Of a DNA stretch of 64,000 nucleotides, positions 56,048 to 58,220 are shown in pieces. The stretch lies in assembly GCA_934436505.1 (NCBI GenBank), contig CAKSAP010000001.1, positions 147,347 through 211,346 on the forward strand, in the 5' to 3' direction. The notes beneath the pieces are model-generated. The model saw only the letters and a program-made list of their open reading frames with translations. It did not search any database and was not told the DNA's origin. A program made the position numbers and the translations under genes. Each line of letters starts with the position of its first letter. The first letter of the stretch is position 1. The stretch comes from an uncultured Eubacteriales bacterium. GTDB taxonomy: Bacteria > Bacillota > Clostridia > Oscillospirales > Acutalibacteraceae.

Positions 56048-56198
56048 TAACCTCACCCTTTATTGAAATATTTGTGTCTTGATTTTAACACATAAATATA
56101 AATAAAACAATACCGTCTTTGATTGACAAACCTGCGTATATTTGGTACAATTATCACGCTCGTTTGAGAGAAAGAGCAACAATTTAATAAGAATATAC

Positions 56199-56273
56199 GC
56201 CTCCTTAGTTAAATGGATATAATAAACCCCTCCTAAGGGTTAGTTGTGAGTTCGATTCTCGCAGGGGGTGCCA
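56199..56273 (+). tRNA. tRNA-Arg (anticodon CCT), CCA encoded
   Basis: Hand-folded cloverleaf. Acceptor GCCTCCT/AGGGGGT (two GU pairs), U8 A9, D-arm GTTA-AATGGATA-TAAT, anticodon stem AACCC/GGGTT with loop CUCCUAA (U33, CCU, A37), 4-nt variable loop, T-arm GTGAG-TTCGATT-CTCGC, discriminator G, CCA. Confidence 0.72.
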
Positions 56274-56281
56274 AAACTTTG

Positions 56282-56309
56282 AAAAGAGCCGAGCAACGGC
56301 TCTTTTGTT
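56282..56309 (+). terminator. hairpin terminator after tRNA-Arg
   Basis: AAGAGCCG-AGCAA-CGGCTCTT followed by TTGTT. The 3' half overlaps the 5' end of the disrupted second tRNA copy. Confidence 0.5.
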
Positions 56310-56478
56310 AAATGGATATAAGAACCTGAACGCAGAAGCGTTCAGAACCTTGTTACTCGCAAAACTCATAATAAGAACCTGAATTCTGACGAATCCAGAA
56401 CCTTGTTACTCGCTTTGCTCGTAATAATAAACCCCTCCTAAGGGTTAGTTGTGAGTTCGATTCTCGCAGGGGGTGCCA
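56298..56478 (+). pseudogene. second, disrupted copy of tRNA-Arg(CCT), interrupted by a 106-bp insert in the D-stem
   Basis: 5' 24 nt (GGCTCTTTTGTTAAATGGATATAA) match copy 1 at 19/24. The 3' 51 nt (TAAACCCCTCCTAAGGG...GGGGGTGCCA) are identical to copy 1. The 5' acceptor-strand mutations would weaken the acceptor stem. Confidence 0.55.
56322..56427 (+). repeat. two tandem 53-nt hairpin-forming units inserted in the tRNA pseudogene
   Basis: Unit 1 (56322-56374) and unit 2 (56375-56427) both read GAACCTGA[hairpin]CAGAACCTTGTTACTCGCnnnnCTCnTAATAA. The hairpin stems differ by co-varying changes (CTGAACGC/GCGTTCAG vs CTGAATTC/GAATCCAG). Confidence 0.6.
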
Positions 56479-56487
56479 AAAGCACAA

Positions 56488-56577
56488 CCGAAAAGCCTAG
56501 TAAAATCAAGGCTTTTCGGCTTTTTTTATTTTTGCGAGAAAACAACAAAAACGAGAAAATCACAAATTTTCATTAGC
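56488..56577 (+). repeat. direct repeat A (approximately 90 nt; terminator hairpin plus conserved tail), partner of repeat B
   Basis: CCGAAAAGCCT-loop-AGGCTTTTCGG (11-bp stem) followed by CTTTTTTTATTTTTGCGAGAAAACAACAAAAACGAGAAAATCACAAATTTTCAT. About 85% identical to 58131-58220. Confidence 0.6.
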
Positions 56578-56720
56578 AAATTTTCCGTCAGCTAATGGAA
56601 ATTAGAACTAACGTCGCCCGCCTTTCAGGTGTACGGGTTGCTAATAAAAATTAGCAGGATTTTCGCTATTTTGTTAATGAAAATGCCCTCTCTGCTAATG
56701 AGAGAAAAAACGAGCAAAAT
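56571..56720. promoter_or_regulatory. array of GCTAATG/CATTAGC inverted-repeat operator-like sites
   Basis: CATTAGC-n13-GCTAATG (56571-97), TGCTAAT-AAAA-ATTAGCA (56639-56), CTCTGCTAATGAGAG and CTTGCTAATGGACAAG palindromes, within 150 bp upstream of a small RHH-like ORF. Confidence 0.4.
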
Positions 56721-56846
56721 TCTTGCTAATGGACAAGGCGGTTGTTACCCTGTTAATTCGTTCATTTAGGGGTGGTCAAGAGACAATCGCACACTACCTA
56801 TATGCCCTTTCTTATTATATAATTGCGGTAACAGGAGGTGGTTGTT

Positions 56847-57026
56847 TTGAAAGAACAGAAATATCACCTATATCTTTCCAAGGACGAATACAGCGAAGTG
56901 TTGCAATCACTTATCCGTTTGAAGAACAGCCTGATAGCACAAGGCAGATACACGGACGCAGTAGATGATATTCTTTGCAAGGTGCTTTCAGCCAAGAAAA
57001 GACAGTTCAAAATCAAATATATCTGA
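56847..57026 (+). CDS. small hypothetical protein, possibly a ribbon-helix-helix (CopG/Arc-like) DNA-binding protein
   Basis: 59 aa from a TTG start with an AGGAGG RBS 8 nt upstream. The N-terminal alternating pattern KYHLYLSKDEY followed by two predicted helices resembles the RHH fold. Assigned by pattern only. Confidence 0.35.
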   Translation: MKEQKYHLYLSKDEYSEVLQSLIRLKNSLIAQGRYTDAVDDILCKVLSAKKRQFKIKYI

Positions 57027-57107
57027 ACACGAATAAAGACCGCCTACACTTTTGTAAGCGGTCTTTGCTAATTTAGAGTAAGTTCGACAAACTGGAATTT
57101 GACTTGC

Positions 57108-57455
57108 CTATTTTCTTAAAATCTCATGTGGAGCTTCTATTTCATTTGCCAAGGTATGCTCTGTTAATTCTGACATCAATTTCAATTTTTTATTAATCAA
57201 TGGTCGCATACAATTAGGAACATGTTCCTGATGCGCTCTGTGGATTGCTACACATTCCTTACAGTTTCCGTGATAACGACAGGCTTTCAGGCAAGGACAG
57301 TGATCTTTGTCTTTATACTCCTTACGAAATTCCGCTGCAAATTCTTCTTGCAGTCTCAGTCCCTCGACACGGTTTCCCTTATGAAATTCTACCATTGCAT
57401 CCAGTTCTTTCTGGTTCCCTTCAATCTTCATGTTATTATAGCGCCTCCATTTCAA
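57108..57455 (-). CDS. hypothetical cysteine/histidine-rich protein (putative metal-binding)
   Basis: 115 aa from a TTG start (the internal Met at 57431 is an alternative). HCPCLKACRYHGNCKECVAIHRAHQEHVPNC cluster. AT-rich gene. Confidence 0.45.
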   Translation of the reverse strand: MKWRRYNNMKIEGNQKELDAMVEFHKGNRVEGLRLQEEFAAEFRKEYKDKDHCPCLKACRYHGNCKECVAIHRAHQEHVPNCMRPLINKKLKLMSELTEHTLANEIEAPHEILRK

Positions 57456-57513
57456 CTATTCCTCATTTTCTGATAAATTCCTATTTTCTCAATTCTCCAA
57501 ACTGGAATTTAGA

Positions 57514-57882
57514 TCATGATTCATATGGATAGTAGTGTTCTGCCTTCGACTGAAATTCACATAATTTTAATATTTTCATATCCTTATCAAAATCTGCTAT
57601 TGTAACACCATCAAAGCCATCTATCTTACCATCATAATTACATCTGAAGTACCATTCAACAATTAACGTTTGGTTTTGCTCGAATATTCTTTTGATTGTC
57701 CATTCCAATACTTGTCCCTTATTATTCCAATTTTCAAACCATGTTACAATTTGTGATAAGCCATGATATTCAGGTCCATAGCATTCACTATACAAAGCAT
57801 TTTCAGAAAAAGTCTGTTTTACAATCTCAACATCGTTATCTAACCAAGACTGAAAATATTTCTTAATGACATCTACTTTCAT
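57514..57882 (-). CDS. NTF2-like / SnoaL-like fold protein
   Basis: 122 aa starting MKVDVIKKYFQSWLDNDVE with W/Y-rich cone-fold signatures. GGAGGA RBS. AT-rich composition. Confidence 0.55.
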   Translation of the reverse strand: MKVDVIKKYFQSWLDNDVEIVKQTFSENALYSECYGPEYHGLSQIVTWFENWNNKGQVLEWTIKRIFEQNQTLIVEWYFRCNYDGKIDGFDGVTIADFDKDMKILKLCEFQSKAEHYYPYES

Positions 57883-58130
57883 ATTATCCTCCACAAATTC
57901 AAATTTGTCTTTCTCTTAATTTCCTATTATACACCAAAATTATGAATATTTCTACCCGCCGTCTATTGACCTTAGTTTCGAGGAAAATAGGCGGCTTTTT
58001 GTTATTTTCAAAAATTTTTTTCAAGATTTTTTGAAAAAACACCCCCCAAAAACGCTCTCCCATTTCAAACAAGTGAAAAAACCACGAAAAATTAGCAGGT
58101 TTTGGACGAGAATTTACTAACAGTGAAATC

Positions 58131-58220
58131 CCAGAAAAGCCTTGATTGTTCTTGGTTTTTCGGCTTTTTTTATTTTTGCGAAGAAACAGCAAAAACGAAA
58201 AATCGCAAACTTTCATAATC
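58131..58220 (+). repeat. direct repeat B (degenerate copy of repeat A)
   Basis: CCAGAAAAGCC...TTTCGGCTTTTTTTATTTTTGCGAAGAAACAGCAAAAACGAAAAATCGCAAACTTTCAT. About 85% identical to repeat A over the 3' 65 nt. The hairpin portion is degenerate. Confidence 0.6.

Follow-up and report, generated by a model that had tools for sequence, protein, structure and literature searches.

A tRNA-Arg(CCU) pseudogene probably split by two tandem copies of a very small non-autonomous mobile DNA element

The window, by which we mean the whole 64-kb stretch of DNA that was analysed, contains two copies of a tRNA-Arg(CCU) gene. The first copy is intact, and the second is split by a 106-nt block and followed by the remnant of an ICE. 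The features of this locus are as follows.

56123..56151, + strand: sigma-70-like promoter (TTGACA-17-TACAAT, with TG) upstream of tRNA copy 1; consensus scan 11/12, a pattern match only
56199..56273, + strand: tRNA copy 1, intact tRNA-Arg(CCU) with CCA encoded; ARAGORN and Rfam RF00005, 55.9 bits
56282..56306, + strand: terminator hairpin T1 (AAAAGAGCCG-AGCAA-CGGCTCTTTT); 10-bp perfect inverted repeat
56299..56321, + strand: 5' part of copy 2, comprising a degenerate acceptor strand GCTCTTT, the D-stem 5' strand and the D-loop up to GGATATAA; 86% identity to copy 1 and ARAGORN after removal of the insert
56322..56374, + strand: mini-element unit 1 (GAACC...CTCATAATAA), 53 nt; covariance model R1 51.4 bits, E = 1.9e-12, and fold
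56375..56427, + strand: mini-element unit 2 (GAACC...GCTCGTAATAA), 53 nt; covariance model R1 64.4 bits, E = 1.4e-12, and fold
56428..56478, + strand: 3' part of copy 2, from the last base of the D-stem 3' strand through CCA; inside an exact 58-nt repeat
56488..56527, + strand: terminator T2, 11-bp stem and T-run; inverted repeat and comparison with L002
56434..58216, no strand assigned: ICE left-end remnant of ~1.7 kb behind copy 2; blastn and ICE annotation

Copy 1 is called as tRNA-Arg(cct) by ARAGORN and its Rfam tRNA score is well above the gathering score of 29, in agreement with the original prediction that this copy is complete. Copy 2 as it stands receives no ARAGORN call, and its Rfam tRNA score of 25.2 bits on 56408-56475 is below the gathering score and arises only with the tail of unit 2 serving as the acceptor strand. 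When 56322-56427 is removed in silico, ARAGORN calls copy 2 as a 74-nt tRNA-Arg(cct) that starts at 56299, with the acceptor strand GCTCTTT and four G.U pairs. The 3' 51 nt of the two copies, already described as identical, lie within an exact 58-nt direct repeat (56219-56276 and 56424-56481) that additionally includes 4 nt upstream and 3 nt past the CCA, and the 5' part of copy 2 is 86% identical to copy 1 (56296-56324 compared with 56197-56225). Copy 2 is degenerate and probably now a pseudogene; it may have originated by tandem duplication or as an ICE-borne copy. An assembly artefact is excluded for this locus because three conspecific metagenome assemblies (L134-L136), independent of one another, show it in identical form. 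The 3' arm of T1 and its T-tract are at the same time the degenerate 5' acceptor strand of copy 2, and equivalent terminators with different sequences occupy the same place in L027, L076, L077, L088 and L121. Sequence comparison with L002 shows that T2 is homologous to the terminator behind the ICE-borne tRNA-Arg of Monoglobus pectinilyticus.

The block that splits copy 2 lies in its D-arm, directly after the TAA of GGATATAA, and consists, as had been proposed, of two tandem 53-nt units; their mutual identity is 77%. The 8-bp tetraloop stems with compensatory differences were also recovered: the first hairpin (P2) of unit 1 is a perfect 8-bp stem with a tetraloop (z = -3.7), and in unit 2 this stem is retained, two of its pairs having changed in a compensatory way (CG to TT / CG to AA) and a single position being an A.C mismatch. 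The second hairpin (P3) is degenerate in unit 1 and canonical in unit 2. Overall the 106-nt block folds at -31 kcal/mol (z = -6.65). A long-range helix between unit 1 and unit 2 that appears in this fold finds its simplest explanation in the self-complementarity of the two P3 hairpins, and pairing by hand in L018 gave just 8 of its 11 pairs. The repeat that flanks the block is the 4-nt ATAA, rather than the ATAATAA that had been suggested as the target, and across the family described below it is TAA, ATAA or AATAA.

Both units belong by covariance model R1 to a family of mini-elements of 42-80 bp that is carried by more than 100 gut and rumen Clostridia genomes plus their phages. The layout of the element is TAA, GAACC, the P2 hairpin, the core AGAACCTTGTTAC, the small hairpin P3 and GTAATAA. 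P2 can be of any sequence and is 13-43 nt long, and P3 is TTAC-TC-GC-loop-GC-TC-GTAA or merely TTAC-NNN-GTAA, with the element ending in TAATAA. The 12-nt core between the two hairpins is near-invariant, a property that is partly built in by the large scans, which used a pattern with the conserved core fixed. An exact-core scan of viral contigs yielded 8 loci, all of them true homologues, while a gapped pattern recovered 9 loci in viral contigs and at least 120 in genomes, and of the latter about 115 are real. Covariance model R1 covers 116 copies at 98 loci, where members other than the window units score 27-85 bits. The carriers include several bacterial families, phages and a few non-Firmicutes metagenome-assembled genomes, and tandem arrays of 2 to 4 or more units occur. 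The rest of the 64-kb window has no further copy, and 0.69 Mb of unselected gut Clostridia contigs gave no extra copy. The element is low-copy and site-selective, with two recurrent hot spots at the D-arm of tRNA-Arg(CCU) and at the stop codon of the GGGtGRT-family gene. Further sites that involve neither a tRNA nor an ICE are gene stop codons and phage replication modules, and many copies begin exactly at the TAA stop of a gene that precedes them in the same orientation (GGGtGRT, RNase Y, an aldo-keto reductase or a phage gene).

Searches of existing collections did not return the element. Rfam 15 at gathering score gave only tRNA in the whole window, Rfam at E <= 10 gave nothing relevant on 56150-56560, and five viral loci gave no Rfam match; weak Rfam candidates (ohsC, SQ1002 and others) had scores far under threshold. 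Annotated phage and plasmid collections returned only tRNA matches and the Monoglobus ICE, with chance matches only when a long-type unit was the query. A literature search with the core as text returned irrelevant papers, and one with keywords returned general reviews, neither containing a description of the element. When the 1153 ORFs within 3 kb of copies were clustered, no transposase, integrase or other family was tied to the element, and it is therefore non-autonomous.

Both hairpins are conserved and strongly covarying. Specifically, 97.9% of the predicted stem cells pair, compared with 20-55% in slid controls, and two-sided changes are present in 10 of 17 pairs, including 6 of 7 in P2 and 4 of 6 in P3. 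None of 500 shuffles reached the observed covariation values. This supports the part of the original prediction that called for selection on structure, though not its specification of RNA, given the scarcity of G.U pairs (13/1085 in predicted stems on the sense strand and 22/1105 on the antisense strand) and the occurrence of the element in both orientations. Relative to the coding strand, 54 copies have the same orientation and 37 the opposite one, which is only a weak bias (p = 0.09), and for nine copies the genes on either side both run on the opposite strand. The stems, being almost without G.U and found in both orientations relative to genes, suggest DNA hairpins, and we infer that they act in single-stranded DNA. 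At 42 bp the unit would also seem too short to close into a duplex circle or to be held in a paired-end complex. Folding of the variable stems is equally good on the two strands, and for whole units the antisense strand is the better RNA fold in 111 of 114 cases. On the antisense strand GUU/GUU and tandem G.A take the place of the conserved internal loops AAC/AAC and UC/UC, and only the strand as written has the conserved basal G.U pairs of P1 and P3. The hairpins may also have an RNA role on either strand. In favour of DNA, one variant (L180) has its 3' AGAACC replaced by GGTTC, the complement of the 5' arm.

Near-identical bacterial genomes, and likewise near-identical phage genomes, exhibit an exact presence/absence polymorphism of the element after a TAA. 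The filled L149 and the empty L159 are identical at 393 of 400 upstream positions and differ by exactly 42 nt, GAACC...GCGTAATAA, after TAA. The same is seen in phage contigs, where L008, L010 and L011 are filled (71 nt), L261 and L262 are empty, and both sides of the same TAA match. Since these near-identical genomes differ by exactly one unit after TAA, the element is a discrete mobile insertion. GGGtGRT gene ends that were found independently of the motif were filled in only 6 of 121 cases and empty in the other 115. When the element boundaries are set by the filled and empty alleles, terminal inverted repeats are absent, as the ends GAACCTG... and ...GCGTAATAA are non-complementary in all four possible registers. 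The TAA, ATAA or AATAA repeat of 3-5 nt on both sides of the element fits equally well with a small target duplication or with an element that itself ends in TAA; variants of the 5' and 3' flanks do not consistently match in what is a noisy comparison. Homologous recombination, in place of repeated transposition, could account for part of the recurrence of the element at the two hot spots.

At the tRNA-Arg(CCU) hot spot, there are 29 independent loci with 1-4 units, all at the same point in the D-arm of a tRNA-Arg(CCU) copy or fragment, and their P2 sequences are unrelated. With the units removed, ARAGORN calls a tRNA in the window, L049, L088 and L121, and none in L027, L076 or the 5'-only fragments. 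L049 has full-length split copies, L076 has a 1-nt deletion in the T-arm, L088 has a broken T-stem, and most tRNA-Arg loci with units retain just a 5' fragment. In tRNA-Arg loci the element is found only in non-functional copies or fragments, which accumulate there. The locus is also an ICE integration hot spot: ICE families that break tRNA-Arg(CCU) at CCTCCTAA(G) and carry their own tRNA-Arg are present in L002, L044, L070, L075, L117 and L122, and the 5' fragments, at least, seem to have been left behind by ICEs that integrated in the anticodon loop and brought their own tRNA-Arg. In the window, 56434-57100 and 57888-58077 match the left end of the Monoglobus pectinilyticus ICE at 89.9% and 90.7% identity, respectively (blastn), and 58157-58216 is a repeat of 56513-56573. 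The annotation of the Monoglobus ICE lists ParA/B, a relaxase, VirD4/VirB4 and tet genes.

From these results 56322-56427 is probably a mobile DNA element, very small and non-autonomous, that is present as a head-to-tail pair in a tRNA-Arg(CCU) pseudogene. As we envision its insertion, a target TAA would come first and the element, starting with GAACC, would insert directly behind it. The 3' end of each copy regenerates the A-rich ...TAATAA| site, such that a new copy can insert straight behind an older one, and tandem arrays of 2 to 4 or more units would be explained by each copy recreating its own target site. The mover would act in trans and may be a hairpin-recognising HUH-type enzyme (IS200/IS605-, IS91- or Rep-like) encoded elsewhere or on a phage or ICE. 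The units in the window are presumably without function and would have been kept because the host copy already was, or thereby became, dispensable.

This mini-element can be compared with several known systems. PATEs (derived from IS200/IS605) and REP/RAYT lack terminal inverted repeats, have conserved hairpins and little or no target duplication, and insert beside a short specific sequence. The mini-element is like them in its conserved hairpins and lack of terminal inverted repeats and in fitting a single-strand DNA mechanism; of the PATE-type features it has two covarying subterminal hairpins, no terminal inverted repeats and a position that is always 3' of TAA. It differs in that the ORFs within 3 kb include no Y1 transposase or RAYT. 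In addition, the element consensus contains no GTAG or CGTC tag, its copy number is far lower than that of REPs (in the 0.69 Mb of contigs and the 64-kb window), and the arrangement of cleavage site and hairpin differs from that in IS608. Group I introns in the anticodon loop of bacterial tRNA genes and archaeal bulge-helix-bulge (BHB) introns are likewise structured inserts in tRNA genes; the window block differs from them by its D-arm site, its 53 nt per unit, the absence of an Rfam intron match, the presence of the element at non-tRNA sites and its decaying copies. With the classical MITEs (Correia/NEMIS, RUP and Nezha) the mini-element shares a short non-autonomous insertion, filled and empty sites, an A/T-rich flanking repeat and a stable predicted fold, and it differs by lacking the terminal inverted repeats that define them. 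The suggestion that the units are a miniature insertion element is supported by the many relatives, the covarying hairpins and the alleles that differ by exactly one unit as far as a non-autonomous insertion is concerned, though not in the sense of a classical MITE. No parent IS is known, no transposase is found in the 3-kb surroundings of any copy, and at 42 bp the element is much smaller than any of the MITEs tabulated in PMC3184786. The closest analogue is bcr1, an interspersed repeat of the Bacillus cereus group of about 155 bp that is limited to one species group, is non-autonomous and patchy among related genomes, has short A/T-rich flanking direct repeats of 5 bp, and contains two independent stem-loops kept by compensatory changes (PMC3184786). 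The mini-element resembles bcr1 in being small, non-autonomous and patchily distributed with two compensated stem-loops and A/T-rich flank repeats. It differs in its size of 42-80 bp, its 12-nt near-invariant core, the lack of any detectable sequence relation, a hairpin that is free in sequence and length, and a low-copy, site-selective presence in several families and phages. BOX of Streptococcus pneumoniae is modular and intergenic, with a stable fold and a tandem subunit in variable number (PMC3184786). BOX however is built from distinct boxA, boxB and boxC, whereas the mini-element forms head-to-tail arrays of complete units, apparently since the target site is restored with every unit.

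An alternative, which we regard as unlikely, is that the unit is primarily a structured RNA module, such as a 3'-UTR stabiliser, an RNase processing site or a small RNA, for which mobility is a mere means of spread. This would account for the many copies that start at the TAA stop of a same-strand upstream gene, for a covariation that equals that of curated RNA families in strength, and for the antisense strand, on which the loops turn into RNA-typical motifs (tandem G.A, G.U/U.U) and the fold is better for 111 of 114 units; bcr1 of Bacillus is moreover transcribed (PMC3184786). However, with the unit at only 6 of 121 orthologous GGGtGRT gene ends it is not a conserved regulatory part of that gene, G.U makes up 1-2% of stem pairs, and both orientations occur even between opposite-strand genes. 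Units are also located within dead tRNA fragments and, in the window, behind a terminator, and no Rfam family is matched at gathering thresholds and nothing relevant at E <= 10. Less probable still is that the units represent a new minimal class of mobile DNA in which the core AGAACCTTGTTAC between the hairpins is the complete recognition and cleavage site of a widespread host or phage single-strand nuclease/ligase; if so, 42 nt would hold all of the cis information for insertion after TAA across phyla and phages. A still more exotic variant is that the antisense transcript, with GUAACAAGGU and a hairpin, mimics the 3' end of 16S rRNA (h44/h45 junction) and has a ribosome-related role.

It is very improbable that copy 2 is functional, with the block either accommodated in an enlarged D-loop or excised in the manner of an intron or intervening sequence to give a working tRNA-Arg or a tRNA-like RNA. 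The preserved 3' 51 nt, the cloverleaf called after in silico removal, in which all acceptor-strand changes preserve G.U pairing, and the full-length split copies in L049 would be congruent with function, as would a position at the D-loop/D-stem border where the D-stem 3' strand TAAT is remade by the element end and the next base. There is nevertheless no promoter between T1 and copy 2, T1 sequesters the acceptor strand, equivalent copies are decayed in L076, L088 and L027 and mostly reduced to 5' fragments elsewhere, and the element also occupies non-tRNA sites. We know of no splicing system in bacteria for inserts of this type. The least probable reading, which had been raised together with the original prediction and is already largely refuted, is that the units are scars or arm-type sites from repeated site-specific recombination of integrative elements at a tRNA-Arg attB. 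This fits the neighbourhood well, since the locus is a proven ICE target at which several ICE families break tRNA-Arg(CCU), and an ICE left-end remnant lies behind copy 2, but it does not fit the units themselves: they occur at stop codons and in phage replication modules without tRNA or ICE, ICEs recombine in the anticodon loop instead of the D-arm, no unit is present at the end of the Monoglobus ICE, and the unit alone distinguishes filled from empty alleles. A weak likeness of the units to the tRNA 3' region had also been pointed out. Neither this likeness nor that of the unit tail to an acceptor strand, which underlies the 25-bit Rfam match, is seen in family members at other sites; it is not a family feature and not meaningful. 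Among other candidates, a CRISPR-like array, an integron attC, a dif/Xer site, a group I/II intron remnant, a hairpin ribozyme, a T-box and type III antitoxin repeats were rejected on their spacing, conserved boxes or size, and on the lack of a match to the Rfam models. The outcomes that the original prediction had named as contrary to it (no tRNA-Arg call for copy 1, a unit with no other copies and no covariation, or a single uninterrupted tRNA with unrelated flanks in related genomes) were not found.

Small non-autonomous repeats are known in many bacteria, but we are aware of no report of one from uncultured Oscillospirales of gut and rumen, the dominant group in these metagenomes. With a minimum of 42 bp, the element is among the smallest discrete mobile insertions seen, and it is distinctive in combining the absence of inverted ends, a conserved 12-nt core, a free main hairpin, carriage by phages and two precise, repeatedly used targets. 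The family constitutes a natural set of filled and empty alleles for testing models of single-strand transposition, and the mobilising enzyme, once found, would yield a compact, sequence-defined insertion system. Hairpins that are added directly behind stop codons may alter mRNA ends. Finally, the element splits tRNA-Arg copies, which are then missed by tRNA finders, and it breaks assemblies at the tRNA-Arg locus; 4 of 7 conspecific contigs end inside the tRNA repeat.

The only tRNA that ARAGORN calls in the 64 kb of the window is copy 1 (56199-56273), a tRNA-Arg(cct), and Rfam makes the same assignment at 55.9 bits, in agreement with the original prediction of a complete tRNA-Arg(CCU). Downstream lies a degenerate copy 2. 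Specifically, a repeat search of the window returned a 58-nt exact direct repeat (56219-56276 and 56424-56481) that contains the 3' 51 nt of the tRNA, the 4 nt upstream of these and 3 nt beyond the CCA, and so covers the 3' stretch predicted to be identical in both copies. The tRNA 5' part is duplicated at 56296-56324 (29 nt, 86% identity), and between the two tRNA parts of copy 2 lies a 106-nt block that had been described as two tandem 53-nt units, a division with which the repeat search agrees (77% identical). The hairpin of unit 1 has a perfect stem of 8 bp capped by a tetraloop; in unit 2 two pairs of this stem are changed in a compensated way and one position is an A.C mismatch, which bears out the compensatory stems proposed earlier. 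The block folds much more stably than shuffled sequences do (z = -6.65), and its deletion in silico (56322-56427) leads ARAGORN to call copy 2 as a 74-nt tRNA-Arg(cct). Three independent conspecific metagenome assemblies have the identical locus, indicating that it is real and fixed in the species; four more conspecific contigs terminate within the tRNA repeat.

Relative to copy 1, the acceptor strand of copy 2 (GCTCTTT) has C-to-T changes that keep G.U pairing, and the same bases serve as 3' arm and T-tract in a strong terminator hairpin (56282-56306). This copy 1 terminator shares 56299-56305 with copy 2, where they form the acceptor 5' strand, and the changes that create the T-tract still G.U-pair with the G-rich 3' strand. 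In five other genomes, the terminator position after copy 1 is occupied by different terminator sequences. The two window units are most likely inert passengers of a pseudogene, and copy 2 may have originated by tandem duplication or arrived with an integrative conjugative element (ICE). Note that a tRNA-Arg(CCU) sequence identical to copy 1, with unrelated flanks and an ABC-transporter-like gene upstream, is found in L001 (MT835598.1, a 'Bacteriophage sp.' scaffold; L-numbers denote other genome, metagenome and viral loci), which is probably a bacterial contig and not phage.

Neither unit occurs elsewhere in the 64-kb window. A shared core (AGAACCTTGTTACTCGC) matched 8 viral contigs, all with a common architecture, and a gapped pattern (AAGAACCT-N10-40-GAACCTTGTTAC) matched 9, one of which (L013) was set aside as a likely chance match. 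In species-representative genomes, the gapped pattern gave at least 120 listed matches, ~115 of them genuine loci, so the proposed search for the 53-nt unit in other genomes did find relatives. The genuine loci among the matches listed belong mostly to Acutalibacteraceae, Oscillospiraceae and unclassified Clostridia from gut and rumen, with a few binned as Saccharibacteria, Desantisbacteria or Holdemania. Rfam has no family matching the element, no copy turned up in the annotated phage and plasmid collections, and its core sequence is absent from any relevant paper in the searchable literature. Overall the element is rare, as 0.69 Mb of contigs selected by gene rather than by motif held no added copy. 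Judged from these matches, the family is large, cross-genome and phage-borne, with no description found; the 53-nt unit is one member of these minimal hairpin elements that insert after TAA, a finding more general than a reading of the sequence alone could show.

The consensus is an (A/T)TAA followed by the element itself, GAACC-P2-AGAACCTTGTTAC-P3-GTAATAA. The first hairpin, P2, is free in sequence, with a short form (stem 5-9 bp, loop 3-5 nt) and several long forms that have a conserved apical AAUCAAAGAUU hairpin and fixed bulges. The second, P3, reads TTAC-TC-GC-NNN-GC-TC-GTAA and has longer and shorter variants. A covariance model (R1) based on 17 units of the short type gives window unit 1 a score of 51.4 bits and window unit 2 one of 64.4 bits, and it found 116 copies in 98 loci. 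In its alignment 97.9% of cells are paired, with changes on both sides in 6/7 pairs of P2 and 4/6 pairs of P3; 0/500 shuffles came up to these figures, and pairing in slid controls was 20-55%, so the covariation sought in homologues is present. Copies outside Oscillospirales, where contig mis-binning is possible, score 29-41 bits with R1: L020 (Saccharibacteria MAG), L054 (Desantisbacteria MAG), and L078 and L090 (Holdemania). L054 and L078 have an expanded P3 in common, and the L054 copy adjoins a putative tRNA-Lys.

The element is a discrete mobile insertion. At 13 genome loci with at least 8 unrelated P2 types, it lies directly 3' of the stop codon of a 332-aa protein that we call GGGtGRT from its sequence motif alone. 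When ends of this gene were collected from metagenomes independently of the element motif, 6 of the 121 were filled and 115 were empty. The filled L149 and the empty L159 are identical at 393/400 upstream positions, have downstream sequence in common, and differ by exactly 42 nt (GAACCTGACGCAAGCGTCAGAACCTTGTTACTTGCGTAATAA) located after TAA; a second lineage shows the same contrast (L164 vs L151 and L172). In phage contigs L008, L010 and L011, a 71-nt unit lies between the TAA of a replication-module gene and the ribosome-binding site of the next gene; L261 and L262, which lack the unit, match these contigs both before and after this TAA. The ends fixed by filled and empty alleles have no terminal inverted repeats, and the flanks show only a 3-5 nt repeat (TAA/ATAA/AATAA). 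The predicted mini-insertion element is borne out as a discrete insertion; in the window, the flanking repeat is the 4-nt ATAA on each side of the block. The feature is real and its earlier interpretation essentially correct. The element also sits exactly on the TAA stop of unrelated genes in L111, L085, L090 and L008 (RNase Y, aldo-keto reductase, ABM-like protein and the phage replication-module gene), in each case leaving intact both the stop codon and the ribosome-binding site of the gene that follows.

The D-arm of spare tRNA-Arg(CCU) copies is the element's favourite landing site. The window's exact insertion position, after GGATATAA, is used at 29 independent loci with 1-4 units each and mutually unrelated P2 sequences; this site and the GGGtGRT stop codon make up roughly 40% of all occurrences. 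At tRNA-Arg loci, the copy called by ARAGORN never carries the element. In the commonest layout (i), a promoter is followed by a 5' fragment (nt 1 to ~34) with units, a short spacer and a complete tRNA. The window exemplifies layout (ii), also seen in L027, L076, L077, L088 and L121, with a complete tRNA, a terminator (T-tract into GTTAAATGGATAT), units, the tRNA remainder and a second terminator; layout (iii) has split copies of full length (L049). After removal of the units in silico, only part of the element-bearing copies are callable, indicating that these are pseudogenes, some more decayed than others.

The element inserts selectively where an A-rich context ends in TAA. Its 3' end (GTAATAA) re-forms this target, which offers a simple explanation for the head-to-tail arrays (2 units in the window, 4 in L105, at least 3 in L110). 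We infer that the hairpins act in single-stranded DNA, since the variable stems are almost purely Watson-Crick (predicted G.U pairs, 13/1085 on one strand and 22/1105 on the other), copies run in either direction with respect to genes (54 in the same and 37 in the opposite orientation, including 9 between genes both on the other strand), the 3' flank of L180 is rewritten as the complement of its 5' flank, and 42 bp leave too little length for a double-stranded circle or a paired-end complex. In the L180 variant (1194-1240), the 3' AGAACC has become GGTTC, the complement of the 5' GAACC, which closes the AAC/AAC internal loop so that the stem runs for 11 bp without a break, the pattern that would be expected of hairpin-templated repair. 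Substrates of HUH enzymes (IS200/IS605, IS91, rolling-circle Rep) combine hairpins and conserved single-stranded flanks with a lack of inverted ends and little if any target duplication, hallmarks that the element appears to match. Its core CTTGTTA also resembles the CTTGATA nick sites of this superfamily, which makes such an enzyme a candidate. Among ORFs within 3 kb of copies, no HUH enzyme was found for the element and no protein family is tied to it.

Alternatively, the element may act as RNA. Many copies begin at a same-strand stop codon, the antisense strand folds better in 111 of 114 units, and on that strand the conserved loops AAC/AAC and UC/UC change into motifs of G.U/U.U and of tandem G.A pairs. 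The conserved core ACCTTGTTAC (56348-56357 and 56401-56410) is exactly complementary to a universal 16S rRNA segment, GUAACAAGGU, the primer 1492R site; the antisense strand thus reads GUAACAAGGU and then a hairpin, like the h44/h45 junction. By a rough estimate, the probability that 10 nt would match 16S somewhere by chance is ~0.01.

Functionally, the element is similar to bcr1 of Bacillus, BOX, REP/RAYT elements and the IS200/IS605-derived PATEs (review PMC3184786), and it is a candidate member of the IS200/IS605 group. It is excluded from MITEs because it is without terminal inverted repeats, and from REP elements because it is low-copy and without a GTAG/CGTC tag; we place it among the small non-autonomous interspersed elements. 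Many copies have beside them either runs of degenerate 7-8-mers similar to the element 3' end (GTAATAAG) or other heptamer repeats; the runs are GTAAGAAG/GTGAATAAG in L016, L021, L033, L035, L069, L100 and L130, and GATAGCA in L023, L084, L112 and L133. They could be traces left by repeated insertion and excision, or by slippage.

The tRNA-Arg(CCU) locus is also an ICE target. In Monoglobus pectinilyticus (L002), L044, L070, L075, L117 and L122 the host tRNA is broken in the anticodon loop at CCTCCTAA(G). After the break come ~85 nt with a promoter, then the tRNA-Arg(CCU) borne by the element, its terminator and a GCTAAT-repeat-rich region. Such integrations are a plausible source of the dead 5' tRNA-Arg fragments seen in layout (i), which tolerate insertions. 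Several ICE families use this site, with their own, sometimes very different, tRNA-Arg(CCU) ~85 nt inside the left end, and serial or nested integrations are visible in L075, L117 and L122. Window positions 56434-57100 and 57888-58077 have ~90% identity to the Monoglobus ICE left end, indicating a 1.7-kb remnant after copy 2:

56434-58216, ICE left-end remnant, ~90% identical to the Monoglobus pectinilyticus ICE

The region past this remnant is polymorphic within the species, and the genes of the conspecific contig L135 differ beyond ~57460. The Monoglobus pectinilyticus ICE carries tet(O/32/O) and tet(40), and the cargo slot of the remnant is swapped (two minus-strand genes, one SnoaL-like, vs DUF3784). 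Positions 58157-58216 repeat 56513-56573 at 90%. Finally, GCTAAT/ATTAGC repeats, both inverted and direct, are clustered at 56565-56730 (I1, I6-I9, D6, D12), after the copy 2 terminator (T2) and before the first gene of the ICE. The cluster is also kept in the Monoglobus ICE, L027, L031 and L121 and looks like a putative operator-site array.
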